A stretch of 64,000 bases of DNA, from assembly GCA_018673485.1 (NCBI GenBank), contig JABHCP010000001.1, forward strand, positions 3,512 through 67,511. The letters are read 5' to 3'. The position numbers and the translations under genes were made by a program. The first letter of the stretch is position 1; every line of letters starts with the position of its first letter. The DNA is from Candidatus Uhrbacteria bacterium. Lineage in GTDB: Bacteria; Patescibacteriota; Patescibacteriia; UBA9934. The notes beneath the pieces were generated by a model, which made no database searches, had not been told where the DNA came from, and saw nothing but the letters and a program-made list of their open reading frames with translations. Below, in pieces: positions 5,031 to 62,149 of this stretch.

Positions 5031-5222
5031 TAAAGCACATAAACCGCCTTTCGGCGGTTCATTAAACTGTTTTCTGCCTACCGCACTACTACTTATTCTG
5101 TCGTTCCTCCACAGGAATTGCGCATGATCCAAGTGCGCAGTGCTCAGGAGACAAAAAAGCCGAGCATAGACTCGACTCCCAACTGCGCACAGCGTACTGA
5201 GCACCGTGAACTAGCCCTCCAA

Positions 5223-6473
5223 TCACGGAATCAATGACTTCATCCACTTTCGTAACTGATCCGCGACCTGATTAACACCCTTGATATTTAATAAATTGAA
5301 CTTTCCACCATGAGCGCCACGTATAGCAAATCCCCAAAGTGTAAGACCGACAGCCGTCGCATAGGCACTATCTTGCACCTCATCGATAACGCTAGTAACT
5401 CCAATTGGTTTACCGATAGTTGATGGCAATCTCAGCACTCGCTTTGAAACATCAGCCACGCCCGGTAGATGCATTGTCGCACCCGTTAAAACAACCCCAA
5501 CTGGCAGCATTCCAGACCGATCAACCTTACGAAGTTCGTCATCAATATTCTCAAATAACTCCTCAATTCGAGCTTCAATAATTTCTGATACAAATCTAAC
5601 CTTTATCATCTCATCTTCAGTTGATCCAAAGTCAGCTAGTGAGAACTGAGCCTTTCTATCTACATCGTCTGGAACTGCATTACCAAACTCTCTCTTTACC
5701 TTCTCAGCGACTTCCAGTGATGTTCTAAGCCCGATAGCAATGTCATTGGTCAAATGATCCCCTCCAACAGGTAAAACCGCTGTATGGAGGATGTCACCTT
5801 CTTCAAAGACAACCATACTCGTTGAAGATGCACCGATGTCAATCACACATACTCCAAGCTCTTTTTGTCTTTGTGTGAGCACAGCCTCCGCAGTTGCTAG
5901 TGGAGTAAACACAAGATCGTCAATATCCAATCCGGTTCTATAAATTGTCTTGGTAAGATTCTTGATTTGAGATGAAAGTGTTTGAATAATCACCGCATCA
6001 ACCTCTAGTCTTATTCCACTCATGCCAACCGGGTCCTTGATTCCGTGCTGCCCGTCCACTGTGAAACTCTTTGGAATCACATGCAAAATCTCAAAATTCG
6101 ATGGTGTAGCCACGGTTCTAGCGGCCTCAATAACTCGCTCTACATCTTCTTCACGAATATCCGTATCTGCTCTGGCAATTCCAACCACTCCATGGCTCTC
6201 TTGCACAAATATATTATGCCCGGCAATTGAGACCCACGCACCATTTACTGCAACTCCTGTCATGCGCTCGGCGCGCTCTAATGCCTTTGAAACAGAAGAT
6301 ACCGCATCTTCCATAGAAGACACAGTTCCTTTATGTACGCCCTCTGATGGAACAGAAACGGCTCCGGTGATGTGTAATTGTGGTTTTCCGGTTTCATCAG
6401 GTACAACCTGACCTACAACCACACGTATTGTGGATGACCCAATATCTAACCCTGTGATGATCTCCTCTGCCAT
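5223..6473 (-). CDS. ftsA: cell division protein FtsA
   Basis: MAEEIITGLDIGSSTIRVVVGQ actin-like ATPase; 416 aa. Confidence 0.9.
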   Translation of the reverse strand: MAEEIITGLDIGSSTIRVVVGQVVPDETGKPQLHITGAVSVPSEGVHKGTVSSMEDAVSSVSKALERAERMTGVAVNGAWVSIAGHNIFVQESHGVVGIARADTDIREEDVERVIEAARTVATPSNFEILHVIPKSFTVDGQHGIKDPVGMSGIRLEVDAVIIQTLSSQIKNLTKTIYRTGLDIDDLVFTPLATAEAVLTQRQKELGVCVIDIGASSTSMVVFEEGDILHTAVLPVGGDHLTNDIAIGLRTSLEVAEKVKREFGNAVPDDVDRKAQFSLADFGSTEDEMIKVRFVSEIIEARIEELFENIDDELRKVDRSGMLPVGVVLTGATMHLPGVADVSKRVLRLPSTIGKPIGVTSVIDEVQDSAYATAVGLTLWGFAIRGAHGGKFNLLNIKGVNQVADQLRKWMKSLIP

Positions 6474-15900: not shown

Positions 15901-18900
15901 TCGCTGATCTCACAAACATCCTGACACTCCACGTCTGTACTACACGAGTCTCCAGTACTAGAGCATGAATACGTACAGGCGCTGGAACCAACATTTTGAC
16001 ATGTACTTGAACACGTAACATCGTCGGTGTCATCGCAGTCCTCACCAATCTCTACTATACCGTTACCACAAATTCCATAATATATTTCAGATCCTGTAGC
16101 AACGCACTCGGAAGTGCATCCAGACGGAATATTAGTTTGTCCGACATCAAATAGATCGCTTGAAATAGTCACCCACTGCGCGACATCCTCATCATCCACT
16201 ATTGGATCGGTCCACACCCACTCATATTCATAGCCATTCAATTCTTGTCCGGCAACTGAACAACTATCCGGATCTCCATAGGCAGTTACTTCGTAATACT
16301 GTGTGTCGCCAATGCTATCAAGTGTAATATTTTCTGGCTCCAAGCCTATGCGACCGACCAAACAAAGTGCATCGTCGTCCTTAGTCCCAAAAGTCCAAGA
16401 AAAATCATCGCCATAGTTTGTTCGTGACAGTGGAACTCCGCTTGTCGAGATAGCTGACCCCGAAACTATAACTCTATAATATTCTGCTTCTTTCAGCTCT
16501 GTGCCATATGTAGTGTCAGAAATTACCAGAGCAACCTCTGAACATCCAACAGATTCGATATCAGTTGAATCTCCAATAGAATCTGTATCGCTACAGCTTG
16601 CCACAGTTGTAATTTCTGAAAGAGTTGCGCAAAGCTCGTTCGCGCATGAATACAACGCTATATCACCAAGAACTGAATCATCCATTAGTGTATTGAAAGT
16701 TACGCTGATCGCACCGTTAATGCATGCGGTATCACAGTCTGGCAAGTAATCACTTACATAAGGATCCGCAAAGTTCACTATCACCTCGGCGTCTCCCTCT
16801 GTACCACTAGCCTGCTCTTCTGCAGTTAGCACCGTCGTACCCTCCGCTACCGCCACTGCTGACTGACAATACTCGTCGCTTATAGTCGCACAACTCGTCA
16901 GCCCAACATATGAACCAGTATCCAAATCCCAATCCCATGAGTAATCAACTGGATTTAGCACCTGGCACTCTTGAAGTGGAAGTGCATTAAACTCTGATTC
17001 ATCTCCCTGCTCGTCGATTGTCGCTGATATCGGACTAACCAAAACCTCGGATACATCACAATCCTCCTCACTTGCACCAGTTGTGAAAGTCCATGAATAT
17101 TCCTGGCTTAAGTTCTGTCCATCTTGGGACATTATTTGATCACTAACTTCTACTAAATACGAAGTGCTTGTCTTAAATTTTCCGCCATTATATGTTGAGT
17201 GTGCTGTCCATATAAACGATGTCTGAGTGGCGCTCGCGCTATCTTGCACTGAATCTGCCAAAACCTCTGCCGCGTCCTTATCGTCACCGCTTAGATCGCA
17301 ATCACTGTCCTCGCACTCATAAACTTTGATGTAGTCGCTCGTGATAGTGCTTGTATCCATTAATGTGCTGAAAGTTCCACGCACAACCGCATTAGTGCAC
17401 GCCTCTCGCGTGAAGCGATAGTTAGGCACGGCACTCACCAAAGTATCCGAACATTCAACTAAAAGTTCAGGCACTACCGGTATGGGTCCAGTTGAGAAAA
17501 ACCAGCTATACCCACCCAGCGACAATGTGGTGTCACTCGACTCTTCTGCTCCTATTTCAAAATTAAGCGTGTTACTTTCTTCTCCTCCGGCTGAAGTAAC
17601 ACTCAACGCTCCAGTCTGCGCTCCAGACGGAACATTTACAGTAATATCACTATCGCTCCAGTCACCAGAGACGACTGTAGCGCTCACACCGCTGAAAAAC
17701 TCAACTGAACCAATGTCAGAGCCAAGGTTCTCTCCATAAATAACCACGGTATCATCCACTTCGCCCATATCCGGATCAATTGCGCAAATTCCCGGCGTTG
17801 GGTCATCATTTGTTACTTCAAAATCCATAGCCTCGGAGTCAATATCGGCCTGGCTTGTTATATAAATATCATAGTCCCCTACCGTAAGACTGTCTCCGCC
17901 TGTAAATTCGTCAGGCACTATTACAGTTATTTCGGTGGTATCCCAAATTTGTCCCTCACACTCATCTGGAAACTCAATACTTCCTTGCGCTGTGTATCCG
18001 CTGGTCTGATCCTCAAACCAAACGGTGCCCAAAGAAGATCCAAAGCTTGTTCCGGAGATCGTTACATATTGACCGATCCCTCCACTATCAGGCTCAACTG
18101 AATAAATAGTTGGTACAATGTCATCTCCATAATCAACACCAAAGCTGATCTCGTTTGAAGTCACTCCATCAACTGTCACAGAAAGATCAACGTACTCACC
18201 GGCAGTGAGTGACGGAACAGTAATTGTGAGTGACGAATCTGACCACCTAGAGTAACTGCTCGTCGTGGTTGTATTAAAACTTACAAATGAATCATCTCGA
18301 CTGTCTCCAAAGCCTAGCCCAGAAAGTGACACTCCGTCTCCGACTTCAGCAGTATCAGGACTAACGTTACAAAGACTTGGTCGCTGCGTATCATTAACAT
18401 CAAAATCATCAATTAATGCACCCGAATCATCGTCGGTTGCGTCTGAATACCCTCGAGGTATCTCGATTGTAATTGGACCATCAGCTGCTCCGTCTGGTAC
18501 TTCAGCAATGATCTCCTCAGAGTTCCAACCGTCACCACATGATGGAATATCGGCCTCAACTGTGCCACCCGCACCATCTGCGAAGTAAACGGAACCAGTT
18601 GACCCAAAACCGGATCCAGAAATAGTTACATAAGTTCCAACCGCACCGTTTGAAGGTGAGACGCTACTTATTTCAGGATATGTTACACATGCCCCATCTT
18701 CACAGTCTCCACCCGAACAATCACTATCTTCAGAGCATGATTCACCATCGCAACTACCACAACTTCCACCGCAATCAACCCCCTCTTCGTCACCATCCAA
18801 TACTCTACTAAAACAATGAGCTGGCAGAATCCTAATTCGAACAGAATCAGAATCTTCATTTCCAGCAATATCGGTCACTGTAACTTCGAGCGTGTAACGT

Positions 18901-19928
18901 GCATCTTCCTCGGCGTCATCTGTGTACCAAGTGCTCTCGATTGTCACGTCAGACAAGTCTGCACCACTGGCTGCAACACTATCGAACCAATCGTCACCGG
19001 CATAAAAATCAGCAACTGATATTTCACTATCATCTGTTGCAGATATTTGAACAAGCGTTGAACTATCCGCTGGAATCATCTCACCACTATCTGGATATGT
19101 GACGCTTACATTGGGGTCCTCTGTATCAACTATGTCCCCTGTTGTGAAAGTCGATGTACAACTTACAGCCGAACAATCTAGAGAGGTTCCTGATGTGCTA
19201 TCAATATCGCTATCAACTACAACTGTGTATTGTGTATTTTCACCAAAACAGAATCGATCTTCATTAGGTTCCGGGCAAGGCTCCGATGGTGTAAACGTAA
19301 CTTTATTTCCAGAAATCTCTAATGTGCCATCAACCTCATCGCCAGTTTCTGTATTAGAAATAGTAAGATTGCCCTCAACGGTATCCTCTTGAACTCGCCG
19401 GCTAAAAGTAACATTCAAAACCACGTTTCGAATTGAAACCTCACCTTCTGGTGAATAACTGGCAACTGCAAAGCTCGAAGCCGATCCACCACCCATACCA
19501 CTGGACGCCCCTGAAGAACTTGAGCTTGAACTCGATCCTGAGCCACCCGAGCCGTCTGTTAAGGCCCCTAACACAAATGTGGTGATTGACCAGGACAAAA
19601 GTATTATTCCCAGGCCAATAAAGCCATTTAATAAAATCTTTTTCGCTTTATCCACTTTGTCAGGGTCGCCTTGGGCTGTCATCCAGACAAATCCTCCGTA
19701 CAGCACGATGACCACTGCAATAACGCCCAGCACCGTCAGAAAGGTTCTGATCAGCCTGGCGACTATGATTTGCAGACTCTCATCTTGCAAACCGCTAGTC
19801 TCACCTACAGTTTCAAGTTCATCAACTTGAGCGTACGCTGTGTGGATTGGTGCTAAAACACCTCCCGACACAGTAAATACGACTGCGAGTGCGCTTAATA
19901 GTAAAGTGAAACGTTTGAGTAATGACAT
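9933..19928 (-). CDS. giant (3331 aa) membrane-anchored surface protein with IPT/TIG repeats, Myxococcus-type cysteine-rich repeats, a vWA domain and TSP3 repeats
   Basis: N-terminal signal peptide plus a two-helix module (LGVIAVVIVLYGGFVWMTAQGDPDKVDKAKKILLNGFIGLGIILL). Repeated SPxxGxxGxYVTISGxxFG IPT-like units. At least 8 CGDGxxxxGEECDDGNxxxGDGCSxxC units. MIDAS motif DVEIMFVIDLSGSMS. DTDGDGIVDEDDNCPDDSNSSQTDTDGDGIGDEC. Confidence 0.85.
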   Translation of the reverse strand: MSLLKRFTLLLSALAVVFTVSGGVLAPIHTAYAQVDELETVGETSGLQDESLQIIVARLIRTFLTVLGVIAVVIVLYGGFVWMTAQGDPDKVDKAKKILLNGFIGLGIILLSWSITTFVLGALTDGSGGSGSSSSSSSSGASSGMGGGSASSFAVASYSPEGEVSIRNVVLNVTFSRRVQEDTVEGNLTISNTETGDEVDGTLEISGNKVTFTPSEPCPEPNEDRFCFGENTQYTVVVDSDIDSTSGTSLDCSAVSCTSTFTTGDIVDTEDPNVSVTYPDSGEMIPADSSTLVQISATDDSEISVADFYAGDDWFDSVAASGADLSDVTIESTWYTDDAEEDARYTLEVTVTDIAGNEDSDSVRIRILPAHCFSRVLDGDEEGVDCGGSCGSCDGESCSEDSDCSGGDCEDGACVTYPEISSVSPSNGAVGTYVTISGSGFGSTGSVYFADGAGGTVEADIPSCGDGWNSEEIIAEVPDGAADGPITIEIPRGYSDATDDDSGALIDDFDVNDTQRPSLCNVSPDTAEVGDGVSLSGLGFGDSRDDSFVSFNTTTTSSYSRWSDSSLTITVPSLTAGEYVDLSVTVDGVTSNEISFGVDYGDDIVPTIYSVEPDSGGIGQYVTISGTSFGSSLGTVWFEDQTSGYTAQGSIEFPDECEGQIWDTTEITVIVPDEFTGGDSLTVGDYDIYITSQADIDSEAMDFEVTNDDPTPGICAIDPDMGEVDDTVVIYGENLGSDIGSVEFFSGVSATVVSGDWSDSDITVNVPSGAQTGALSVTSAGGEESNTLNFEIGAEESSDTTLSLGGYSWFFSTGPIPVVPELLVECSDTLVSAVPNYRFTREACTNAVVRGTFSTLMDTSTITSDYIKVYECEDSDCDLSGDDKDAAEVLADSVQDSASATQTSFIWTAHSTYNGGKFKTSTSYLVEVSDQIMSQDGQNLSQEYSWTFTTGASEEDCDVSEVLVSPISATIDEQGDESEFNALPLQECQVLNPVDYSWDWDLDTGSYVGLTSCATISDEYCQSAVAVAEGTTVLTAEEQASGTEGDAEVIVNFADPYVSDYLPDCDTACINGAISVTFNTLMDDSVLGDIALYSCANELCATLSEITTVASCSDTDSIGDSTDIESVGCSEVALVISDTTYGTELKEAEYYRVIVSGSAISTSGVPLSRTNYGDDFSWTFGTKDDDALCLVGRIGLEPENITLDSIGDTQYYEVTAYGDPDSCSVAGQELNGYEYEWVWTDPIVDDEDVAQWVTISSDLFDVGQTNIPSGCTSECVATGSEIYYGICGNGIVEIGEDCDDTDDVTCSSTCQNVGSSACTYSCSSTGDSCSTDVECQDVCEISDTETLEGTCSISGTVCGSDEECVYSSSTCGQDDASCCGDGDLDAGEECDDSNSRNGDGCSSSCLNEGSQSVGATCGNLDEAHEDDQGGEECDDGNASSGDGCSSVCLNEGTTPITQVAAECGDGDWDIDAPYETCDDGNTIDGDGCSSSCLREGSAGSYGTCGDESLDQDSSTGAGEDCDGEEWCSSDCLLSGSSIYYVDPSVCGDGVVGSGELAVCEESSYGAGPDGYPDPVQLAQIIDDAAEQVDMDTNIATSTIEVSYDGLSAYTSLYLSCVAENDDDCDEGYGPATTGCCMARPDPDLFPNGSSACLNAEIYGLFDMQMDVSSFDDNAFLILDVSTTDDGLCPSTHSTIAMNEIQKGWWSRAFSLISRMLAPIVQAQNGGDCVMPMTGFAQSTVGEGADEVYKVVFHYDEALAPDAQYSIYVYGDELDDTAREGLLTRYGVAMDGDHSQIFETYQSICGLDEVDIVDGETDSPNVFTESGESHEFSATAYSYDTGAAQSIEPISSYAWGWVSWSSDADGVDVYGAPNGEDIIMILDDETVDLASPALGSYSAAGITGQANIATSAIVTVDDSGESFYCSSDASITGCTPGDACGDSGTCEATTVSGTADVSVVVCENLWPALEYFPFSDSADGYHAGVATSARHGRAWMNFSTYYCRDDGDDDLISDDYPELRVVMAQEHGTDDVLKEYFFNVYDDNIPTGDAIGMRIIMNEAYLSPLAWYYANGFSGSPTETTIDGFQAVVDGRSIYVAVPNYVSGSLYPNIVIVSYNYGASSTAVEIYDMFIENMSLVNNIDDTAMCYRSTDGDYGDSCTSDLDCTTVGYECADEKSKLMRDMDRLGDVTDIASYMGGTIPQIESGSFVRSLTSSVWTSWNDVLADELGVSVAADPLNQYILCGTGRYSDYDSETCVNEITGQYLCPVDSRTYHYRTYGDAGYVIGAELEFEQGSWVPDIDNNIYDDYQILIGGSGTGDGFQNGAAFCDGSTVWGSSDICGDGIVGSAETCEIGDTTSGAACDSDEDGVNDGYILNNCNSECSGYDATLECEVLSCGNGVLEAGEECDDGSLNGSYGFCGADCTNSARTYCGDGELAGGELCDCGSVAPASGAAYGAGACTYLNGVYSASASDTCAWDCSGPAPYCGDSTADDSEECDGNTETYSGKICSSGMSDNDGECEQDSDCASGTFGLSDGDDIDIEAEIEAGTAVCGDSDPDDISKDTANECPYTTVCIDGDASKTGEPCGVNSYCDSSVGGDGICSTFEYQTIRTRSCDDSVCEWGEDWADIDCIAPGSCGDGVVDDGEECDDGNDDSTDDCTIECTSNVCGDGYVYAGMENCDEGIDNGQICSATYGSTCAYCNESCVNVTTSGSFCGDGVINGSETCDGTDVLYNYYSETLYQRAGLGIGETCLASDYGLVDDEGRSCVPTGVCEGGDAGGAAWSDGSYCSPTSELCMDGISTCVAPSCDASCESTCPFTYTAQSISMQTNQIGASRSYTVDLAPYDATATSVVSGDTVTLYIPACTVSDGISISIDQSDREYPDVEIMFVIDLSGSMSSELGDSTRIEVLESAVSDAITSLHEAYDGTSANMGIGWAYIGGTHQTYTAPVDTDGDGIVDEDDNCPDDSNSSQTDTDGDGIGDECEEVEPDPVVCDCGEMAVDVADCEALCEDDDSSTDDGLGDSGTSGTDGVGEADDATVFTPGLKGTKLASMSLWDQAMSSFKPLIAWASYASSGEGKFLMLEAASSAGVYTTESDTQLSISDGLVVDGVTGTPIYESIEDAALGFSGYADNEYMIIFTDGNIYNTDYESLYFDHIDTEDTDGDDVMDTDEYMRGVSNLLDDIKDAGVEVFSAVLSSNDCQIAQMQRWSSMECTDISDTDGGGSCGVMTTEGNHDCVVPDNGTTYAYSATTANELADMYEAIVDAILNVTISLTFDGETEASTVGAGSSRSINLPSTFACDESSEQTVTLRVSLNGEGTVELSDMYLNMCTD

Positions 19929-21892: not shown

Positions 21893-24800
21893 CTATTGAG
21901 ATAACTCTGTGCGCTTCTTCATTACCTTACCTTCAAGATCAAGATCATCGGCCTCGTCAACATCATCTCCTTGCGTAAACCTCGGAAAAAACGTTGCCTC
22001 GACATCTATGATGTATTGGTTCCAATTGTCGCCATATAGTGTGTTTGCAACCTCTTCTGAGGCTATCCAGCGGATAGTGATTCCATCTGAATCTATTGCA
22101 TAGACCTTAGGGTCAGACTGGATCTTGATGAGTACGACACCTGGATTAGGAAGCATCGGATGTCCTAAAGTTATTGTTGTCAACGTTGCGTCCGTTACTG
22201 TCTTCACGTTATCGAAGTTATCTTGGTAGGTAAAGAATGTCTGTGCATCCATGAAAGGACGTCGGACCATATCACCTGTTGAGCTATCGGTGTCGAGGTA
22301 ATAAACAGTTGAGAAGTATGAACTTCGGATGTAATCCCCTATCTCAGTTACAGATATGTCCTCAACTTCTCCTGTCACTGGTGAGTAGCCTTGTTCTCCC
22401 GTGGTTGGTTCTGTGACCTCGGAAGTTGGATCTTCGTCGATCGTATTATCGGTTGAGTCTTCTGTGCCGTCATCCGCACCGTTGAGCGCACAACTCTCGG
22501 TCTCGAAGGTGGCTGTGATCTCTGCGAGGTCTGTTCCTTCGATCTTAAACTGTAGTGTAGATCCTGCAATGTCCGCTGGTATTGTCCAAGTGTAGTTCTC
22601 TGTGTTAGTTATTGGGCCTTCAATGAGAGTATATGTTATTCCTGCGTCTGTTGAGTAATATAGATTGACGAGGTTCACAGAAGAGTTTGAAGCCCATGCA
22701 AGGGCGATGTTCTCTCCAGGGTTGAAACCTTCTTCGCATGTTCCAGATGCACTTGAGGACTCTGAGATTGAATCTACTGGATTGTCGTCTGTTCCAGAGC
22801 CAATGGATGGGTCTGGAGCGGACGATGAGACTGAGACGCCTCCAGAGGATGCTGTTGTGAATGTGGCAGGGTGGGTAACGCCAGCAATAGCACCACCGAA
22901 TGCTGTGGCGGCGGCGTCTGCCGCTACTGTCATTGTGAATGTGTAATCTGTTGAACTTTCGAATTGGTCATGTGTGACAGTTAAAACGGTATTACCTACT
23001 GTCCATGCATCTACCTTACCTCCAGGATCTGCTGATAGCGTATATGCTGCAGTGCCTGTGTTAATAGCCTCCGAGAAAGTAACTACAATATCTTCTGAGG
23101 TTGAAACGTTTGTTTCAGCGTCAGCTGGAGAAAGGACTGTAATAACAGGACCGGTTCTGTCTCCATACACAACATTTGCGAAAGCTCCGATGTCAGTGTT
23201 TGTGTTTGTTCCATCTGTTATTGAAAAGTTTACCTGTGAAAGAACAGATAGAGTACCTGAACCTTCGTTGGTATCTACTACTGTTGCCGGAGTTGCAAGC
23301 GTAATCTCAAGACTGCCGACTGTTCCCTGAACAAGATCTGTTGTGGAACCTCCAAAGGCTAGGTTGTCGAAATCTCCGTCAACGTCCACGCTCAAGTCTG
23401 CGTAACGGATGACCGAGGCGGCTGTAATGTTTTCTGAAAATCTTAGATCAAGAGTATCTACTTTACCGTCCGCATCTTGGTCGGAATAGTTTATATCTGT
23501 AATACGAGGTTTCGCGCCGTCCGTTGCTGCTTTAGAACCTGAGGTTGTTGAGTTTGCTGAGGTATCATCGATCGATCCAGCGATTGTAATAGTGGGGGTA
23601 ACAGAAGTATCTCCAATACTCTTTTCTGTAAGAACTACTGTAATTTGTGAATCAGCAGTACGTGAGGCTGACGCTACGGTGTAGCTGTCAGAGGACGTGA
23701 AGTCAGCTCCGGCGATCGTTCCAGTTTCAACGTCTTCAGTCATTGTTAAAATAACGGCGTCGATGTAACCATCTGAATCTGTGTCATCTGTGGCCGCTGA
23801 TGAGATTGATGGGCCGTAGAGGTCAACAGCAGACAACGAACCGTCTCCACCGTTAGTAGCTGCGTCTGGTCCAGTTCCTCCAGCAGAAACAGTTGAAGCG
23901 ACAAGACTGGAAAGATAATTAGACGAATCCGCACCATAGGCAACGCGAATACGCCCTCCTCCACCTCCACCACCGTTTGTGGTTGTTCCAGAAGAATCAT
24001 GTCCGTCACCTCCAATGGCTGTAATGGCTCCACTCGTACCAGAAAAAGCACCAGCTGTTACGATTTTAATGGACCCTCCAGAACCACCACCAGTTGACTC
24101 AGTCGAATCTCCATTACCAGCAGATCCATTAGCCGTTAAAGAACCACTTACAACTATGTCACCAACTGAATCAAGAATAATTAACCCACCACCACTAGCT
24201 CCAGCTTTATTAGCTGTTCCACCAGATGAAGAACCAAAAAGTATAGGATCTGTAGAAGAACCATAACTAGCTCCGTAATCGTTTGCTAAGTTTCCTCCTG
24301 CTCCATCTCCACCTGTGCCACCGTGTCCGGCACCCTGAGTGGAAAGAATTGAGTTTGCATAACCATGACCATAACCAGATCCAACCTGACTTTGACTACA
24401 GACGTTTGATCCGCTTGGTCCAAAACCATTTCCGTTACCAACCCCTGTACATCCTTTTCCATTTGCATTGATAGCCGATGTACCATCGATTGATAACGAA
24501 GCCAAGTTTTGCCAATCAACACTTCCATTGATCGTTGAGCCTGTCATGGTAACAGCGGCAGCCTCATTCAAAGTCATCGTGATTGCGGCAGGCAAGCTAA
24601 TCGTAGCCGAGCTAAACCCAACTGTTCCAGTTGATGAAAGATCGAAGTTTGTTATCGCTTCCGTGGAGCAGTCCAATACATTTATGAATGTAATATTGGT
24701 TGCAGTAAGCGATGGCGTTGCATCTATTGATGCATCACAATACATAGACACTACAGATGAATCTGTCGTCCATGTTGTTGCAGAATAATCTCCAGTAAAG

Positions 24801-25924
24801 CTGAATCCATGATACGTAGTTACCGCATTCGTTCCTGTATTTTTTGTGTAGACCGTACCGGTACCTCCCTCATCTGCATCGTCAGGTCCAGCACCTCCCG
24901 CTACAGCAAAAACACCTGATCCATAACTTGTAAAACTGTTTACACCATAGGTTAATGCAATACGTCCCCCACCACCTCCTCCACCGTCATATCCAGCACC
25001 ATCATACCCATCACCACCATCTGCAGATAATGCTCCTGTGCTTCCGGAAAGCGCTCCTGTTACAGCGATATCAACCGATCCACCGCCACCTCCTCCAACA
25101 CCTTGATTGCTGGCTCCAGGCCCATTAGCTCCATTCGCAGAGACTGAGCCATTAAAGGTAAAACCTCCGCCTATTACTAATTTAACTAAACCGCCTCCAT
25201 CACCTCCTGTGGTACTTGTGAAACCTCCAGAAGAAGAACCAAACAAAACAGGTACTGTAGAACTACCATAAGTAGATCCATTAGCATTTAGTTCATATGA
25301 TGGCCCCAGCGCAGCATCTCCATCCCCACCAGCACCTCCGTGACCAGCACCACTACCTGAACGTAGGCTAACTCCAGCCGCACCTCCACCATACCCTGCG
25401 GTATCAACTGTGCAGACATTAAATTCATTTGGCCCAAATCCATTACTACCTGAAGCTCCCTGACACCCCTTCTCATCCACATTAATCCCATTTCCTGCGT
25501 AAATTGTAAAATTACCAGATGTAGATATTAGCACTCCCTGCATATCAAACCCTGCGGTTGGATCGTTATCCCAACCCGCTCCAGCGTGAGTTAGGAATGC
25601 ATAGTCTGATCCATCTGCCAGACCATTACCAATCGTTACAGATGCTACATTTATTTCTTTATCTAAAAGACAATATCCGTCATTATTTCCATTCAAGAAA
25701 GTGACATCATCTGACGTTGTCCATGAACCCTCATCGAGCTCGGAACCACCTGGGGCGTCTGTTGGCACAACCGGAGAAGCTGCCGTACCATCACAGTATG
25801 CAGTTATGGTTGCGGCTTGTGCCTCCGGAACATTCACCATAAAGGTGAATGGAACTAAAACCATTGCAATGATGGAAGTATTGCAAATTAATAAGGCAAG
25901 TGATCTTGTCTTCATATTTTTCAT
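21893..25924 (-). CDS. large (~1343 aa) secreted glycine-rich repeat protein
   Basis: Signal peptide MKNMKTRSLALLICNTSIIAMVLVPFTFMVNVPEAQA. Two tandem ~200 aa Gly-rich repeats (GAGHGGxGGDG...GGGGGGGRIxxxYG). S/T-rich region. Big-like domain VTFSEAINTG. An upstream in-frame ATG at 25978 is also possible. Confidence 0.8.
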   Translation of the reverse strand: MKNMKTRSLALLICNTSIIAMVLVPFTFMVNVPEAQAATITAYCDGTAASPVVPTDAPGGSELDEGSWTTSDDVTFLNGNNDGYCLLDKEINVASVTIGNGLADGSDYAFLTHAGAGWDNDPTAGFDMQGVLISTSGNFTIYAGNGINVDEKGCQGASGSNGFGPNEFNVCTVDTAGYGGGAAGVSLRSGSGAGHGGAGGDGDAALGPSYELNANGSTYGSSTVPVLFGSSSGGFTSTTGGDGGGLVKLVIGGGFTFNGSVSANGANGPGASNQGVGGGGGGSVDIAVTGALSGSTGALSADGGDGYDGAGYDGGGGGGGRIALTYGVNSFTSYGSGVFAVAGGAGPDDADEGGTGTVYTKNTGTNAVTTYHGFSFTGDYSATTWTTDSSVVSMYCDASIDATPSLTATNITFINVLDCSTEAITNFDLSSTGTVGFSSATISLPAAITMTLNEAAAVTMTGSTINGSVDWQNLASLSIDGTSAINANGKGCTGVGNGNGFGPSGSNVCSQSQVGSGYGHGYANSILSTQGAGHGGTGGDGAGGNLANDYGASYGSSTDPILFGSSSGGTANKAGASGGGLIILDSVGDIVVSGSLTANGSAGNGDSTESTGGGSGGSIKIVTAGAFSGTSGAITAIGGDGHDSSGTTTNGGGGGGGRIRVAYGADSSNYLSSLVASTVSAGGTGPDAATNGGDGSLSAVDLYGPSISSAATDDTDSDGYIDAVILTMTEDVETGTIAGADFTSSDSYTVASASRTADSQITVVLTEKSIGDTSVTPTITIAGSIDDTSANSTTSGSKAATDGAKPRITDINYSDQDADGKVDTLDLRFSENITAASVIRYADLSVDVDGDFDNLAFGGSTTDLVQGTVGSLEITLATPATVVDTNEGSGTLSVLSQVNFSITDGTNTNTDIGAFANVVYGDRTGPVITVLSPADAETNVSTSEDIVVTFSEAINTGTAAYTLSADPGGKVDAWTVGNTVLTVTHDQFESSTDYTFTMTVAADAAATAFGGAIAGVTHPATFTTASSGGVSVSSSAPDPSIGSGTDDNPVDSISESSSASGTCEEGFNPGENIALAWASNSSVNLVNLYYSTDAGITYTLIEGPITNTENYTWTIPADIAGSTLQFKIEGTDLAEITATFETESCALNGADDGTEDSTDNTIDEDPTSEVTEPTTGEQGYSPVTGEVEDISVTEIGDYIRSSYFSTVYYLDTDSSTGDMVRRPFMDAQTFFTYQDNFDNVKTVTDATLTTITLGHPMLPNPGVVLIKIQSDPKVYAIDSDGITIRWIASEEVANTLYGDNWNQYIIDVEATFFPRFTQGDDVDEADDLDLEGKVMKKRTELSQ

Positions 25925-26007
25925 GTTTAAATTGTTGGCTATATTATAGCACCGCGGAGTGCTAAAAAAAACAAACATGGGGATAGAAAAAACCCCGCAT
26001 CACACCA

Positions 26008-26625: not shown

Positions 26626-26764
26626 TTAGTTAGAAGTATACAGTAGGCGGTTATCAGTGGCTAGGCAGTGCGGGTTTAAATTGTTTAATCGCTCGGCTCC
26701 GCCATCACTTGTTTAAAATGTTTATTTCGAAGTAAACACTTTAAACAATTTAAACATCTTAAAC

Positions 26765-56432: not shown

Positions 56433-56987
56433 CTACAAACTAAGTGCTTGAACAATCCGCTGTGTTACTTCCTCGATACTTCCAACTCCATCAACCTCAA
56501 GCGCAATTCCAAGAGCTTTATACTTCTCGATAATCGGCTCTGTGTCATTATGGTAAATATCCAAACGCTTCATAATGGTCTCCTTGTTGTCGTCCATTCT
56601 GCACTCAATCTCCGCACGCTTTAGTAAACGACCCAAAGTCTCTTCTTTTGGAATAGTAACCACAACTACCTTAGTTGGAACATCAAAGTTTCTAAACGTA
56701 TTGTACTGCGCAATATTGCGCGGATATCCATCCAAAATATATCCATTCTCCGCATCCTCTTTCTGCAATCGCAATTTTAAAACATCGAGCGCCGTGTCGT
56801 CCGAAACCAACTCACCAAGATTAATAATGTCATCAATCTTATTTCCCAAAATACTCCCCGACTTAACCTCATCTCGAAGCAACTCACCCATCGACAAAGC
56901 CGGAATACCAAGCCTCTCCGACAAAATCTTCGCCTGAGTTCCCTTCCCACTCCCCTGCGGACCCAACACCAATATTTTATGTTTCAT
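56433..56987 (-). CDS. adk: adenylate kinase
   Basis: ILVLGPQGSGKGTQAK P-loop, short-lid form, 184 aa. Confidence 0.95.
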   Translation of the reverse strand: MKHKILVLGPQGSGKGTQAKILSERLGIPALSMGELLRDEVKSGSILGNKIDDIINLGELVSDDTALDVLKLRLQKEDAENGYILDGYPRNIAQYNTFRNFDVPTKVVVVTIPKEETLGRLLKRAEIECRMDDNKETIMKRLDIYHNDTEPIIEKYKALGIALEVDGVGSIEEVTQRIVQALSL

Positions 56988-57060
56988 AGTAATCGTTGAA
57001 ATTGTTTAATCGCTCGGCTTCACCTCGCTTGTCTAAAATGTTTATTATTATCTTCACTCA

Positions 57061-57340
57061 CCTGAGTCCCCCGGCAATGTTTAAGTAGTTACCCCCCGTC
57101 CATTCATTGTCAGACAACCCCGTCTGAGAGGGAGCCTGCCGACCGAACTGGCAATCAGTCCATTCATAGTTACCCAAAAACATTGACTGCAGGCCGAGGC
57201 ATTCTTTGCGGCCGTGGGACTACTCTGAAAAGGCTTTTTTCCGGCGGAGCCGGACCTGGCTCCGCCATGGCTTTGCATACTTTCTTTGAGCCAACAAAGA
57301 AAGTATGTCTGGGGGTTACAGGGGGATGAAATACCCCCTG
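57061..57340. repeat. structured ~280 nt repeat element, copy 2
   Basis: Reverse complement of 4750..5030. Conserved core of ~140 nt, conserved hairpin TACTTTCTTTG..CAAAGAAAGTA, compensatory stem CAGGGGG/CCCCCTG versus GGGGG/CCCCC. Confidence 0.6.
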
Positions 57341-57345
57341 CTTAG

Positions 57346-57573
57346 CTAAACCTCAAATGTCTTCTTCAAAGCCCTCTCGTTATCATTGCTAGAGATCAAA
57401 TGCGCCCTCTCAAGGTGCTTAAACAGCTCCCTAACGCGCTCTTCGTCCAAAGACCCATATTTCCTCATATAGATCTGCAAAGCCACCTCCACAAGGCTCC
57501 TTTCCCTAGAATCCAACCCCATACTACGAGAAAGCTTATGGATCCCATCATCGCTCAATTTAACTTCAGTCAT
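57346..57573 (-). CDS. hypothetical small helical protein
   Basis: 75 aa with no family match; occupies the position where infA would normally sit but is not IF-1. Confidence 0.35.
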   Translation of the reverse strand: MTEVKLSDDGIHKLSRSMGLDSRERSLVEVALQIYMRKYGSLDEERVRELFKHLERAHLISSNDNERALKKTFEV

Positions 57574-57667
57574 ATATTTATTATTGATCTTACCACCCCA
57601 TTTTAGCGTGTTTGGAGGGTGAGTTCAACCATATCTAACTATTCTATAAAGAAAGAAGTAATTTTAG

Positions 57668-58276
57668 TTGTATCATTATTATTTAAATGCTATTTTTAGA
57701 TATATGCATATTAAAACACACAAAGTAGAAGTATTTAGCGAACCATGTTCTTTAGAATTAATGCACTTCGATGATACTGATCGAGTTAAATGGAAACAAT
57801 TATTTGATCAATGGAAATCTTTAAAAATGGGAATGAGAGAATACAAATCCAGAGAACCAAATTTTCCAGAGGGCTTATCAGAAGTAGCCTTTTGTCTTCA
57901 CTCAGGTTCTGGTAGATTCATTAAACTTAAGGGAAATAGCAAAGCATCGTTCGATACCTTCGACCTACAAGACAATCGATCAGAACAAATAAAGGCCTGT
58001 AGCGTAGAGTACGATCTCACATCCTTCGGTCCGAAATCCGTTTGGGACGACATCTATTTTCTGGACTTTTTCAATGAAGGTTTGCTGGATGGTAGATTTG
58101 ATATTTATCAGATACCAACAGATCTGATCTTGAATATGAAAGTAAATAAAGATCAAACTGTAGCTGATCAGCAAAATCAAGGTAGGAGACCAAGATTTAG
58201 TATCAAAAGGAAAATTATAAAAGAATTAAACATCAAACCCATCGCTACAAAAGTGACGGTTTGGAAGAAAGACTAG
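57668..58276 (+). CDS. hypothetical protein, candidate restriction endonuclease partner of the adjacent methyltransferase
   Basis: 202 aa, AT-rich; convergent and overlapping by 4 bp with the 3' end of the C5-MTase gene; the start may be the ATG at 57706. Confidence 0.4.
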   Translation: MYHYYLNAIFRYMHIKTHKVEVFSEPCSLELMHFDDTDRVKWKQLFDQWKSLKMGMREYKSREPNFPEGLSEVAFCLHSGSGRFIKLKGNSKASFDTFDLQDNRSEQIKACSVEYDLTSFGPKSVWDDIYFLDFFNEGLLDGRFDIYQIPTDLILNMKVNKDQTVADQQNQGRRPRFSIKRKIIKELNIKPIATKVTVWKKD

Positions 58277-59868
58277 GAATTCAAAGCAAACTTCATTTTC
58301 TTCGCGATCGCTCTTAGAACTGGAACTGAAACTGAATTTCCAAATTGTTTATATAAAGCAGAGTCAGCCAAATGCTCAGGAATAATATACGAATCAGGAA
58401 AACCCTGAATTCTTGCACATTCACGAGGCGTCAACTTTCTAATACCATTCTCATCTTTTATTATAGGAACATTGTGTCCGCCTGTACCCATATTGGCAGT
58501 TAAAGTTGGGCAGACGCCTTTTTTATTTTCCCTTACATATTTTCGCCTCCACTGATACACTTTCCCGAATTCCTTTACGTCATCTTTAATTTTCTCATAA
58601 AGTGGCTTACCGTTATAATAATACTTATCGTCTACCTTGGATTCCAAAATGTCTGTTATTTTTACTTTCAACTCTACAGGATCTGGAAAGCTGAAATTAT
58701 TCAAATGATCAGCATTCAAAAAACCTACAATATAAATTCTCTCACGATTTTGCGGGACATTGCCATAATCCATGGTGTTTAAAACCTTGGAGGAGACGGA
58801 GTACCCCAGACTCTGCAATGTCTCTTTGATGATTTTGAATGTTTTTCCTTGATCATGTCCTTGAAGATTTTTAACATTCTCTAGTAGAAAGGCCTTTGGC
58901 TTTCGAGTTTCTAATATTCTCGCTACATCAAAAAATAAGTTCCCTCTTTCTTTCTTGTCATCAAATCCCTGCCTATATCCAGCGATAGAAAATGCCTGAC
59001 ATGGAAAACCACCCAATAATATATCAAAGTCCGGCAAATCATTTTCATGGATATTTCGAATATCCTCAACAACTAATTTTGAAGTTCTAAAATTTAAATC
59101 ATAAGTATCTTTACACTTTGGCTCATAGTCGTTTGCAAAGACTGTCTCAAAACCTTCCGCCTCGAATCCCAATCTAACACCACCCACACCAGCGAATAAA
59201 TCTACTGTCTTAAATGAATTGGTCACCTCCATACTATCTTTATTATTTTTATCTTTTGAAAAATTTCTTATAACTCTAATTACAACGCCTCTAACCTCCA
59301 GTTCCTTTACGAAAATAGGTAAAATATTCTGATTAGCTGGTTGCAATCTATAACCATCTTTTAACCTATATATTTTCTTTAATGTACAAGTGTCATCTTC
59401 TAGAATAGCTACCACTGTTTGTCCATTCTCAGGAGATATTTGTGGTTTTATGATAACGATATCGCCATCAAAAATTCCATCGTCTATCATGCTGTCCCCC
59501 TTCACCCTCAAGGCATAACAATCTTCACGCCCCGACAATAGACTACTAGGAACCTCTATCAAATCGGTTTCATCTTCCAAGACTTCAATGGGCTTCCCGG
59601 CAGCTATACTACCTTTAACTGGAATTAATATTGTATTTGTATCTACCTTCAACGATATTGATCTTGGTATATGGTTGGATCCTTCAATATAACCCTTCTT
59701 CACTAAAGCCTGTACATGCTGATGTATCGTGGAATTCGATTTTAATCCTACCAGCCCCCTAAGCTGATTTATTGTTGGAGGAATGCCGTCCTCTTCAATA
59801 CCACTTTTGATAAATTCTAGGATTTCGCTTTGCCTATTTGTTAAACGTTCATTCACCATATAAAGCAA
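58273..59868 (-). CDS. LexA (HTH + S24 autopeptidase) fused to DNA cytosine-5 methyltransferase
   Basis: N-terminus with LexA wHTH (INQLRGLVGLKSNSTIHQHVQALVKKGYI), AAG cleavage site, GDSM Ser and TLKK Lys of the S24 dyad. C-terminus with C5-MTase motifs I DLFAGVGGVRLGF, IV GGFPCQAFSIAG, ENV, QNRERIYIVG and GNSV. Confidence 0.85.
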   Translation of the reverse strand: MLYMVNERLTNRQSEILEFIKSGIEEDGIPPTINQLRGLVGLKSNSTIHQHVQALVKKGYIEGSNHIPRSISLKVDTNTILIPVKGSIAAGKPIEVLEDETDLIEVPSSLLSGREDCYALRVKGDSMIDDGIFDGDIVIIKPQISPENGQTVVAILEDDTCTLKKIYRLKDGYRLQPANQNILPIFVKELEVRGVVIRVIRNFSKDKNNKDSMEVTNSFKTVDLFAGVGGVRLGFEAEGFETVFANDYEPKCKDTYDLNFRTSKLVVEDIRNIHENDLPDFDILLGGFPCQAFSIAGYRQGFDDKKERGNLFFDVARILETRKPKAFLLENVKNLQGHDQGKTFKIIKETLQSLGYSVSSKVLNTMDYGNVPQNRERIYIVGFLNADHLNNFSFPDPVELKVKITDILESKVDDKYYYNGKPLYEKIKDDVKEFGKVYQWRRKYVRENKKGVCPTLTANMGTGGHNVPIIKDENGIRKLTPRECARIQGFPDSYIIPEHLADSALYKQFGNSVSVPVLRAIAKKMKFALNS

Positions 59869-59917
59869 TTATATCACGAAAAGATACCGAACATGTCAGC
59901 AATAATGTGCATAACTT

Positions 59918-59948
59918 AAAACGAGGCCATCCAAAGCCTCGTCTTTTT
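59918..59948. terminator. bidirectional terminator between the protease and the LexA-MTase gene
   Basis: AAAACGAGGCcatccaaaGCCTCGTCTTTTT. Confidence 0.65.
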
Positions 59949-59997
59949 AGCTGACTACCCTATTTTATCTATTTAGTGAATTACTGTAATTTTACTC

Positions 59998-60828
59998 TCA
60001 TGAACCATTTTCAATAACACGCCTTTCAGATTCTTGGATTGCCTCATCAATCGCGTCAACTGTTACTATCTTAGAAAGACCTAAATGACCTTCCAATATT
60101 TGCACCTGTTTATTGGTTAGCGCATCACGCTCCTCACCCATTGATAAAAAACTAATAACAATGCCTAATAAATATGCTTTCTTTACCGGCACAGTTCCTT
60201 CAATAGCCACAAACTGTGGCTTTATAAAAACTGGACCACCACTATTACCAGGAAATACGGGCGCATCTAAATATATCAGATTGTTACTAAGAGTTTCGTC
60301 ATCTACTCTAGCGATAGAACCGCTACGACACATAGCATAATTTTTTTCAGCTCCTTTTAAACCAAGCGGAAAGCCTAAGTAAAAAACTCCATCACCATTT
60401 GATACCCCCGCCTCTTCATATTTGTTTGAATGAAGCGCAGTATCTGTATCAATAATTTGAACATAGTCAATTCCAGCTTCTTTGAGAATATTGCCATTAA
60501 TTGGTATCACAGCCACATCGCACTCCCCTAAAGTTGAGCTAAATACAGCCAAACCATCAACATATAACGATAATTCAAATACTTGAACATTTTCCCCTAA
60601 AGAATCGAACCGAAGAAATACTTTTTGCCTCTGTTTGCCTCTACTCAAACCAGCTTTATATAAAACATGCTTAGCTGTCACTAAATAATTCATTGCTCGG
60701 AACTGATCACCCTTCTTTTCTAGTACTTTTGCATATATAAAACCTGTACCTATAGTTTTAAGGTTTCCATCTTCATAATCCTCGATGGATACAACTGATT
60801 TTAAATATCCTGGTGGTAATAGTGCCAT
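59998..60828 (-). CDS. cytoplasmic trypsin-like (chymotrypsin-fold) serine protease
   Basis: His in VTAKHVL, Asp in ECDVAVI, Ser in PGNSGGPVF; no signal peptide or PDZ domain. Confidence 0.7.
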   Translation of the reverse strand: MALLPPGYLKSVVSIEDYEDGNLKTIGTGFIYAKVLEKKGDQFRAMNYLVTAKHVLYKAGLSRGKQRQKVFLRFDSLGENVQVFELSLYVDGLAVFSSTLGECDVAVIPINGNILKEAGIDYVQIIDTDTALHSNKYEEAGVSNGDGVFYLGFPLGLKGAEKNYAMCRSGSIARVDDETLSNNLIYLDAPVFPGNSGGPVFIKPQFVAIEGTVPVKKAYLLGIVISFLSMGEERDALTNKQVQILEGHLGLSKIVTVDAIDEAIQESERRVIENGS

Positions 60829-60874
60829 AATTTTTTATCAAAAACAGAGCCTTGCGGCCCCGTTTTTTAAATAT

Positions 60875-62149
60875 CTATTTAACGTCGTAGTTTCTCATCT
60901 GGATCTGGGATTCGACTTGTTTTACCATGTCGATTACTACCGAGACTACGATTAGGATTGATGCACCACCTACTACTAAGTTCGGGCTGCCGGTGATTCC
61001 TTGGACTATAACTGGCAAGAGCGCGATTATTGCTAGGAAGCTGGCACCACCGAATAGGATTCTGTTTCGTACCCACCCTAGATAATTCTCCGTTGGCATT
61101 CCTGGACGTACTCCTGGAATAAATCCACCTTGCTTTTGCAAGTTCTCCGCTACTTGATCTGGTCGGAAAACAACTGTTGCGTAGAAGAAGGTGAATCCAA
61201 ATACTAGTGTGAAGTAGATGATTCCGTAGAACCAGTTATTGGCAAAGGCTTCGATTACGAATGTTGCCAAGTCTCTAATCACCTGCGTTTTTGCTTCTAC
61301 AAAGAACTGAGCAATGAGCGGTGGGAATACGATTATTGATATTGCGAAAATGATCGGGATCATTCCTCCCAAGTTAACACGCATTGGCAGGTGTGACTGC
61401 ACCTTTCGTGATGCTCCTCCACGTACCCCTCGGGCGTATTGAACTGGAATATTTCGCTGTCCCTCGTTGACGACTACTACTGCTAGAATAGTTACTACAG
61501 TAAGCACCAGGAATAGTATTAAGTTAAACAAATCAGCCTGTGTGTATGTTGCTGCAACTTGCTGCAAGAATCCAGGGAATCCAGCTACAATACCGGCTAA
61601 GATTAGGATTGAAATTCCGTTACCAACATTCTTTTCAGTCATTAGCTCACCCAGCCACATAAGGAATATTGTTCCGGCTGACATGGTGATTAGGGCTGCA
61701 ATTAGTGCAAATCCTTCAATGGCGAATCCACTTCCCAACTGTCCACCCTGCTGTCCGATTAGAGACACTAGAGCAAAACTTTGAACTAGTGCAAGTGGGG
61801 CTGTTGCCCAACGAGTCCACCTGTTAATCTTTTCACGTCCTGTCGCTTCCTTTTGCATGTCTTCCATTTGCGGGAAGATCATTCCCAAAAGCTGGAAGAT
61901 AATTGATGAGGTAATGTATGGAGAGATTCCAAGGGCAACGATTGAGAAATTCTCAAGCGTTCCACCAGAGAACATGTTCAGTAGTCCTAGGAATTGGTTT
62001 GAGTTTAGAAAAGTATCTAATCCTGCTGCATCAATCCCTGGAACAGTAATATGTGCAGCAACTCGGAAGATGCTGATACATAGAACCAAAAACAGCAGGC
62101 TGTTACGCAGCTGTTTTATTTTCCAAATTCTTCGTACTGTCTCCCACAT
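60875..62149 (-). CDS. secY: preprotein translocase subunit SecY
   Basis: 424 aa, 10 transmembrane helices, conserved plug/TM2 region. Confidence 0.95.
   Translation of the reverse strand: MWETVRRIWKIKQLRNSLLFLVLCISIFRVAAHITVPGIDAAGLDTFLNSNQFLGLLNMFSGGTLENFSIVALGISPYITSSIIFQLLGMIFPQMEDMQKEATGREKINRWTRWATAPLALVQSFALVSLIGQQGGQLGSGFAIEGFALIAALITMSAGTIFLMWLGELMTEKNVGNGISILILAGIVAGFPGFLQQVAATYTQADLFNLILFLVLTVVTILAVVVVNEGQRNIPVQYARGVRGGASRKVQSHLPMRVNLGGMIPIIFAISIIVFPPLIAQFFVEAKTQVIRDLATFVIEAFANNWFYGIIYFTLVFGFTFFYATVVFRPDQVAENLQKQGGFIPGVRPGMPTENYLGWVRNRILFGGASFLAIIALLPVIVQGITGSPNLVVGGASILIVVSVVIDMVKQVESQIQMRNYDVK

Follow-up and report, generated by a model that had tools for sequence, protein, structure and literature searches.

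Type II restriction-modification (R-M) systems are toxic to their host when methylation lags behind replication or repair, and how they avoid this after DNA damage is poorly understood. Autoregulating fusions are one known solution: in M.SsoII/M.Ecl18kI, M.EcoRII, and M.MspI, a short N-terminal helix-turn-helix (HTH) without a protease represses the methylase promoter. Other systems depend on C-proteins. For Type I systems, damage-induced restriction alleviation is known, in which ClpXP degrades the HsdR of EcoKI. In the cyclic oligonucleotide–based antiphage signaling system (CBASS), the CapH repressor loses its activity through proteolysis when DNA is damaged; the metallopeptidase, CapP, is a separate protein, and the whole effector operon is induced. 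None of these relatives uses a LexA fused to a methylase. Here, we describe such a fusion in a 64,000-nucleotide stretch of contig JABHCP010000001.1 (hereafter the window) from a Candidatus Uhrbacteria bacterium, a member of the candidate phyla radiation (CPR). We lean, without great confidence, toward a model in which the LexA-fused methylase represses its own promoter and RecA-stimulated self-cleavage after damage lifts this repression, giving SOS-triggered alleviation of Type II restriction. No description of LexA-methyltransferase fusions was found in the full-text literature searched (a 2017 study of the Patescibacteria SOS network by Sanchez-Osuna et al. lies outside its coverage). This agrees with an earlier interpretation made from the letters alone (the sequence-only reading), which had not recognized the architecture as described.

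A LexA-C5 methyltransferase fusion, its nuclease partner, and their relatives

The fusion gene encodes a complete LexA followed by an M.HhaI-like C5 methyltransferase (Table 1). Its longest open reading frame (ORF) starts at TTG 59868 (58273–59868), the frame from which the sequence-only reading took a 531–amino acid (aa) protein. That frame stands, and a 528-aa product is likely instead, from ATG 59859, a start called in four independent assemblies with a common gene order. Both halves exceed family cut-offs: the lexA equivalog TIGR00498 scores 172.1 bits against a cut-off of 110.95, and TIGR00675 (dcm) scores 343 bits against 100.65. In an alignment to solved LexA structures (3k2z and 1jhh), the GDSM motif falls on Escherichia coli LexA Ser119 and TLKK falls on Lys156. 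The predicted catalytic codons are those of Ser123 (59491–59493) and Lys161 (59377–59379), and a lack of catalytic residues, which the sequence-only reading had listed as a concern, is not borne out. The methyltransferase motifs FxGxGG, PCQ, ENV, and QNRER are present, and M.HhaI is closest to the C-terminal half both by sequence (E = 2.7e-68) and by fold (E = 1e-26).

An AlphaFold model of the fusion has a mean predicted local distance difference test (pLDDT) score of 73.5 and retrieves both M.HhaI and full-length LexA (3k2z and 3jso) in Foldseek. Linker residues 200 to 213 are disordered in this model (pLDDT ~32) and are the least conserved stretch of a 30-member alignment. Pfam, the NCBIfam cut-offs, the structure alignment, and Foldseek thus all uphold the proposed joining of a complete LexA to a Dcm-type enzyme. 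With 528 aa and a C-terminal methyltransferase, the protein does not have the ~200-aa size of a stand-alone LexA repressor. A frameshift or assembly artifact, also raised earlier, is ruled out by the occurrence of the same ORF in four assemblies and by >120 homologous clusters. On present sequence evidence, the fusion is real and conserved.

Table 1. Positions of the R-M cassette, its predicted control signals, and neighboring features in the window.
Feature	Position	Strand	Evidence or remark
LexA-C5 methyltransferase fusion gene	58273..59859	-	528 aa from ATG 59859
LexA winged-helix DNA-binding domain	59662..59850	-	Pfam LexA_DNA_bind PF01726, E 1.8e-19
Ala87-Gly88 self-cleavage site (SIAA/GKP)	59596..59601	-	aligns with E. 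coli Ala84-Gly85
S24 autopeptidase/dimerization domain	59278..59619	-	Pfam Peptidase_S24 PF00717, E 8.5e-27
Variable low-complexity linker	59215..59277	-	between S24 and methyltransferase
C5 methyltransferase domain, M.HhaI-like	58291..59214	-	Pfam DNA_methylase PF00145, E 1.4e-97, profile positions 1-323/324
Bsp6I-family Type II restriction endonuclease	57704..58276	+	Pfam RE_Bsp6I, E 3.9e-13; PADLOC REase_II, E 3.5e-28
Putative LexA-module operator	59875..59892	-	direct half-sites GTTCGGT (59892-59886) and TTTCGTG (59881-59875)
Extended -10 element TGaTATAAT	59868..59876	-	read directly from sequence
DnaA-box-like 9-mer TTATGCACA (fits TTATNCACA)	59906..59914	-	just upstream of operator
Terminator-like G+C-rich hairpin with flanking T/A runs	59921..59942	.	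sole such site in 56900-61000
Trypsin-like serine protease, 276 aa	59998..60828	-	Pfam Trypsin_2; PADLOC candidate PDC-S45, E 1.9e-17
secY, upstream host flank	60875..62149	-	Pfam SecY, E 1.5e-96
75-aa ORF, downstream edge of slot	57346..57573	-	host-like GC 0.452, conserved beside adk
~280-nt repeated element, one copy	57060..57345	+	between 75-aa ORF and adk; not part of the R-M system
adk, downstream host gene	56433..56987	-	Pfam ADK, E 3.9e-38

The gene facing the methylase encodes a predicted Type II restriction endonuclease. The sequence-only reading had proposed an endonuclease here while seeing no recognizable motif; the RE_Bsp6I and REase_II matches bear out the proposal, and the former supplies the motif. 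It had placed the ORF correctly, while its length of 202 aa becomes 190 aa from the probable start at ATG 57704, which is called in four assemblies. The methylase and nuclease genes converge and overlap tail-to-tail by 4 bp, as it had noted, and no terminator-like site was found between them in a scan of positions 56900 to 61000. The nuclease is 38 to 69% identical to the convergent partners of related fusions, and D84, Q95, and K97 are invariant across 10 partner nucleases. Bsp6I presumably has a PD-(D/E)XK fold. For the window's nuclease, a profile search of the PDB returned nothing, and a single-sequence model was unusable (pLDDT 35).

From these gene assignments, we conclude that the insert carries a predicted Type II R-M system. 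Its specificity is probably of the GCNGC type, as suggested by the Bsp6I family together with NgoFVII-type partners, whose specificity we take to be GCSGC. Sites of the GCNGC type occur about once per 360 bp, and any lapse in methylation would give many breaks. No C gene is present in the window's cassette. HTH_3 controllers are present in relatives (L004, L005, L008, and L011; L numbers denote the loci compared here), and at several related loci a small HTH_3 C-protein is encoded upstream of the nuclease.

The fusion architecture recurs in hundreds of CPR restriction systems. A search of the full-length fusion against 5.8 billion proteins yielded at least 120 clusters at 62 to 68% identity, all ~525 aa long and all containing the three domains. 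Organisms named as sources in that search were always CPR/Patescibacteria (Uhr-, Moran-, Kaiser-, Taylor-, Harrison-, and Paceibacteria). Alignments of 30, 47, 20, and 42 sequences show no variation at the cleavage-site Ala-Gly or at the catalytic Ser and Lys. In the 30-member alignment, all methylase motifs are also invariant, and the target-recognition region is nearly so. Close fusion loci lie at differing chromosomal sites, with a tail-to-tail gene at every one. These partners are Bsp6I-like, PD-(D/E)XK_5, or NgoFVII-type proteins, or other proteins (176 to 380 aa) without a family match. Databases name the family members either "transcriptional repressor LexA" (NCBI) or "DNA methylase." Methylase-only relatives without LexA (62 to 67% identity) are found in Saccharibacteria and DPANN archaea; their existence suggests that the LexA half is an addition to the methylase family and not the ancestral state.

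We also searched the LexA half alone against one representative per 50% cluster of 15 billion proteins. The best matches (42 to 53% identity) were N-terminal LexA modules in proteins of 278 to 890 aa. All 47 representatives had an S24 domain, a LexA DNA-binding domain, and a DNA methyltransferase, the last belonging to the N6_N4 (26), D12/Dam (7), Eco57I/N6_Mtase/MmeI/TaqI-type (~7), and C5 (3) classes. A similar picture emerged from 42 metagenomic fusions: S24 and methyltransferase domains occurred in all 42 and the LexA DNA-binding domain in 41, with N6_N4 (23), D12 (10), C5 (7), and Eco57I/N6/MmeI-type (~6) methyltransferases. The named records were again from CPR bacteria (Nealsonbacteria, "Patescibacteria group," and ACD bins). 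Among 43 metagenomic fusions with enough downstream DNA, the partner was tail-to-tail in 35 and codirectional in 6. Metagenomic partners matched many different PADLOC REase_II models or second methylases.

The LexA module is not confined to one gene arrangement. In an Alw26I-type two-methylase system (L087), it is carried by the first methylase, and this Eco57I-type fusion shares the operator described below. At three loci (L112, L161, and L165), an unfused LexA is followed by a separate methylase gene that overlaps it or lies a few bases away, and at L162 a LexA of the same clade precedes a DpnI-family methyl-dependent nuclease. The combination with at least four methyltransferase classes, and its occurrence as a separate gene upstream of methylase genes, indicates that the LexA module plus operator is a predicted portable controller in CPR bacteria.

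Several observations accompany this survey. A Holliday-junction-resolvase-like nuclease directly follows an unfused same-clade LexA among the loci L112, L161, L162, L165, and L156. At L001 (5503–5946), a Vsr (very-short-patch repair) endonuclease gene lies divergently beside a LexA-C5 methylase fusion, which fits the mutagenic cost of 5-methylcytosine. A phage origin was considered and rejected: matches in IMG/VR are mostly stand-alone LexAs, with only two fusions. Seven IMG/VR contigs (L176 to L183, 6 to 9 kb) all terminate precisely 9 nt before the LexA match, perhaps because repeated promoter and LexA-module sequences interrupt metagenome assembly there.

A putative operator and a proposed damage-responsive circuit

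The putative operator of the LexA module lies in the fusion's own promoter, where two direct half-sites 11 bp apart run into the -10 box. The window's ATG is 8 nt downstream of that box, and the fusion mRNA is probably leaderless, as judged from this spacing. In relatives, the operator consensus TTCGG(T/C)-N4-(G/A)TTCGGT fills the spacer from a -35-like hexamer to TATAAT, and the TATAAT box abuts the operator there also. The strict operator occurs exactly once per locus, at the same position, in all 10 close fusion loci and in none of the 76 other loci. The sole match to TTCGG-N6-TTCG in the window is at the methylase promoter, and no operator copy was found near the nuclease gene in the window or the related loci. 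A direct-repeat LexA box of the same geometry (GTTC-N7-GTTC) is documented for Alphaproteobacteria (PMC8565304). The palindromic Gram-positive-type LexA box GAAC-N4-GTTC was found in 0 of 51 fusions; a distant stand-alone LexA (L088) has a classical palindrome, CGAAC-N4-GTTCG. A generic sigma-70 and terminator scan was uninformative (12 sites versus 11.7 expected).

Half-site sequence varies with the predicted recognition helix. A strict match to the operator was found for 29 of the 51 metagenomic fusions and for 8 of the 21 stand-alone LexAs; most of the remaining metagenomic loci keep the 11-bp period, with half-sites TTCTA, ATCGGG, or TCGAAA. Modules with the helix ST[VI]H[EQ]H have TTCGG repeats in 45 cases and TTCTA/TCGAAA repeats in none, while those with STAH[YF][YH] have TTCGG repeats in none and TTCTA/TCGAAA repeats in 23. 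The window's fusion, with the helix STIHQH, is of the TTCGG class. The co-variation of half-site and helix is good evidence, at the level of sequence, for a LexA module that recognizes 11-bp-period repeats and would thereby repress its own methylase promoter. Variant repeats were seen at L091, L092, L095, L104, L107, L112, L114, L124, L125, L132 to L134, L140, L142, and L161 to L165. Repeats of the TCGAAA class lie downstream of the -10 box, in the opposite orientation. Operator classes may act as "immunity groups" against cross-talk between R-M systems.

A second signal recurs near these promoters. Of 79 LexA-module genes (L089 to L168), 42 have a perfect DnaA box (TTATCCACA/TGTGGATAA) in the 150 nt before them, a density of 3.83 per kb versus 0.029 per kb elsewhere in the same loci. 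Such boxes precede both fusions and stand-alone LexAs; most lie immediately before the -35 box, and both orientations occur. The window's sole perfect DnaA box, together with one TTATGCACA, is in the ftsA-ftsZ spacer (4619–4645). This distribution suggests that DnaA may co-regulate lexA-type promoters, methylases, and ftsZ in CPR bacteria. At the start codons of the same 79 genes, a Shine-Dalgarno-like GGAG occurs in only 10. GTCAA(T) just before the start codon occurs in 30 (30-nt span; 12.7 versus 0.99 per kb elsewhere). GTCAA, which reads TTGAC on the other strand, might be a -35 box in antisense or a signal for translation.

Type II R-M activity, when unbalanced, is known to trigger the SOS response (PMC3874152), and the proposed circuit would thereby close a feedback loop against self-restriction. 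The fusion would dimerize through its S24 domain, bind the repeat in its own promoter, and keep methylase synthesis low. Upon DNA damage, including breaks that the system's nuclease makes where repair or replication has left sites unmethylated, a RecA–single-stranded DNA filament would stimulate self-cleavage at Ala87-Gly88. Cleavage would part the DNA-binding domain from the S24-methylase portion, the promoter would be de-repressed, and methylase output would rise. Stronger methylase transcription would probably also hamper nuclease expression, by collision or as antisense, given the 4-bp tail-to-tail overlap and the lack of a terminator-like site between the genes. Overall, restriction by a Type II system would be alleviated in response to the SOS signal. 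The sequence-only reading had anticipated SOS coupling through the S24 autopeptidase, and this fits the cleavage and catalytic residues, invariant in ~120 diverse sequences, and the LexA-type operator predicted at the methylase promoter. It had also suggested that LexA cleavage might de-repress the endonuclease. That idea is not supported: each locus has a single operator copy, which lies only in the methylase promoter, and several relatives control the nuclease through a separate HTH_3 C-protein.

More broadly, and more tentatively, the fusions and the unfused LexA-methylase operons might together form a CPR-wide, portable SOS controller of Type II R-M, in which damage, whether external or self-inflicted, boosts methylation and damps the nuclease. 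In that case, at least two to three operator/helix groups would avoid cross-talk, and the DnaA box may add coupling to replication.

Several points weigh against the alleviation circuit. GCNGC is not depleted in host DNA (178 sites in the window versus 175.7 expected), leaving the system without an independent sign of long-term restriction pressure. No recA was found in the window or the fetched flanks, and its presence in the host is our assumption from CPR genomes generally. The co-variation of helix and half-site is strong (Fisher's exact test, p ~1e-18) but is not corrected for shared ancestry. In the window itself, the second half-site is degenerate, and the start codon is 8 nt from the -10 box versus leaders of ~40 nt in relatives. 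Stand-alone LexAs of the same clade also carry TTCGG repeats (8 of 21) and could bind the same operator. Finally, the fate of the S24-methylase fragment decides the direction of the response: if the fragment were degraded, the outcome would be reversed.

That last point underlies an opposite reading, SOS-triggered suicide, in which cleavage inactivates or destabilizes the methyltransferase and the stable nuclease kills the cell as an abortive-infection device. Cleavage would leave an ...IAA C terminus, which resembles the ClpX-recognized VAA left on the E. coli LexA fragment. The cassette also sits in a predicted defense hotspot beside other defense-type genes, and Type II R-M systems are established agents of post-segregational killing (PMC3874152). 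However, with the operator at the methylase promoter, cleavage should raise new methylase synthesis; a complete methyltransferase domain stays intact on the larger fragment; and host death at each damage event would be costly given a minimal repair capacity. We regard suicide as unlikely. We judge about as improbable a plain autorepressor that times establishment, in which LexA serves as a dimeric DNA-binding domain, the methylase is made first and then shut down, and cleavage has no physiological role. Such timing would account for an operator within the fusion's own promoter and is compatible with the classical C-protein that some relatives retain for the nuclease; R-M regulation is reviewed in PMC3874152. 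The LexA module would then be analogous to C-proteins or to the N-terminal HTH of M.SsoII, M.EcoRII, or M.MspI, and autoregulating HTH-methylase fusions are a known solution. It leaves the cleavage chemistry without a use, and this is hard to explain when Ala-Gly, Ser, and Lys stay invariant despite ~40% identity and shuffling among unrelated methylases.

There is still less to recommend the view that the fusion is the host's only LexA and SOS master regulator, with the methyltransferase as a passenger. Its NCBI name is that of a LexA repressor, it passes the lexA equivalog cut-off, and no second lexA was found in the window, the only part of the genome searched. Because the promoters of same-clade stand-alone LexAs carry the TTCGG repeat as well, the fusion could bind host SOS boxes. 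Against this, the cassette is in an AT-rich insert within a variable slot, is located differently in each genome examined, is invariably accompanied by a nuclease, and has its operator only at the fusion promoter (in the window and the flanks of related loci). We think it doubtful that such an element runs the host response. Least probable of all, by a wide measure, is a three-gene defense module that includes the trypsin-like protease. The protease gene is adjacent, on the methylase strand, and in the same AT-rich tract. Yet a terminator-like hairpin separates it from the methylase promoter, a tblastn search found no homolog of it in ~170 LexA-module or methylase loci, its homologs occur in unrelated contexts, and it matches a single-gene PADLOC candidate. 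The alleviation circuit is the reading that we carry forward.

Insertion slot and neighboring genes

The cassette lies in an AT-rich insert (57574–60874; 3.3 kb) between secY and a conserved 75-aa host gene upstream of adk. The GC content of the insert is 0.359, compared with 0.444 for secY, 0.452 for the 75-aa ORF, and 0.454 for adk plus map. The ORF positions and the AT-rich tract are thus as the sequence-only reading had them, and so is the insertion between secY and adk. Its extent of ~3.5 kb must be reduced: the 75-aa ORF has a host-like GC content, as does the DNA at 57000 to 57345, and both fall outside the insert. Homologs of the 75-aa ORF (66 to 99% identity) are found in close relatives only, always immediately upstream of adk, whichever cargo is present. 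The 75-aa ORF is, as judged by this distribution, a conserved and lineage-specific host gene, and it is the only flanking ORF for which the housekeeping origin considered earlier holds. A role for it as controller of the R-M system was rejected: it has no HTH match, lies on the strand opposite to the nuclease gene, and is kept by adk despite other cargo.

The gene order in relatives is secY - X - 75-aa ORF - adk - map - DUF7282 - ruvX, where X varies. In L229, whose SecY is 90% identical to that of the window, X is a 253-aa protein (5144–5905) without a Pfam or PADLOC match. In L231 (Adk 92% identical), X is a Drt2 defense reverse transcriptase (734–2119; PADLOC E = 1.7e-86). Since close relatives carry differing cargo there, the slot after secY is a predicted small defense hotspot inside the ribosomal-protein/secY/adk cluster. 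No strain was found that has an identical SecY and lacks the island.

In the window, the slot holds two independent items, the R-M cassette and the protease. The PDC-S45 match covers residues 9 to 233 of the protease. Protease homologs are widespread, and their neighbors include a KAP NTPase with a recombinase, an OLD-type TOPRIM ATPase, or Abi_C; these contexts look like defense islands. The sequence-only reading had proposed the protease as a possible third component of the system and a search for the trio in other genomes. In none of the ~170 related loci does the protease stand beside a LexA-methylase gene, and its homologs belong to unrelated defense-island contexts. We therefore class the protease, from its gene neighborhoods, as independent defense-type cargo of the same insert and not as an R-M component.

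Between the 75-aa ORF and adk is one copy of a repeated element of ~280 nt with G+C-rich hairpins. It is 76.6% identical over 286 nt to an inverted copy in the ftsA-ftsZ spacer (4754–5030, minus strand), and a partial copy lies at 26674 to 26726. The element has no Rfam match and is absent from the relatives L229 to L232; a miniature mobile element and a structured RNA are two possible identities. An Rfam search of the window's 50- to 64-kb region gave only chance-level microRNA matches. The window also contains very large minus-strand ORFs at 9933 to 19928 (3331 aa) and 21893 to 25978 (1361 aa).

Significance and comparison with known systems

If the proposed circuit is correct, breaks would lead to SOS induction and then to more protection, in a direct feedback loop. 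Type II systems would then have their first example of a transcriptional "restriction alleviation" circuit; de-repression of a methylase through LexA self-cleavage was found nowhere in the searchable literature for these systems. The setting is the CPR bacteria, a huge and little-studied branch of life. To our knowledge, CRISPR is largely absent from these bacteria, which depend on restriction systems. As a large, modular, and sequence-defined family, the fusions offer a natural set of orthogonal repressor/operator pairs. Database names also need correcting, as hundreds of members are labeled only "transcriptional repressor LexA" or "DNA methylase."

The N-terminal half resembles the canonical LexA of E. 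coli and Bacillus subtilis (TIGR00498) in its winged helix, Ala-Gly site, Ser/Lys S24 dyad, and putative operator at its own promoter. Unlike canonical LexA, the fusion bears a 310-aa DNA methyltransferase and belongs to a mobile R-M cassette. Its operator is a direct repeat, not a palindrome, and the sole one found is at its own promoter. A direct repeat with an 11-bp period is shared with the LexA box of Alphaproteobacteria (PMC8565304), and stand-alone CPR LexAs have the TTCGG repeat as well; the window's box differs from Alphaproteobacterial and Patescibacteria SOS boxes in that it sits at an R-M methylase gene. The pairing of an RE_Bsp6I-family nuclease with an M.HhaI-like C5 methylase is that of the Bsp6I system (GCNGC). 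The methylase-only relatives (62 to 67% identity) have no LexA, and the window's specificity is a prediction.

Among R-M regulators, the closest parallel is with the HTH-C5 methyltransferases of the SsoII type (M.SsoII/M.Ecl18kI, M.EcoRII, and M.MspI), which share an N-terminal DNA-binding domain and repression of their own promoter, the latter predicted for the fusion. The window's protein differs in having a complete S24 autopeptidase between the DNA-binding domain and the methylase. Furthermore, its genes are convergent, not divergent as in the SsoII type (where the HTH binds the region between R and M), and the nuclease promoter is not directly touched. The system works like the SsoII-type family but is not a member of it. 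C-proteins (e.g., C.PvuII, C.AhdI, and C.Esp1396I) likewise are small dimeric regulators that time R-M gene expression; they have an Xre-type HTH without DNA-damage sensing, and the window's cassette has no such gene. The proposed circuit shares with Type I alleviation the tempering of restriction when damage or repair creates unmodified self sites. The means would differ, with HsdR proteolysis in the one and methylase de-repression through LexA self-cleavage in the other. As in CapH/CapP, a repressor cleaved upon damage would control an immune operon. Unlike in CapH/CapP, LexA itself would be the sensor in the window's cassette, joined to the component that protects the cell rather than to the toxic one.

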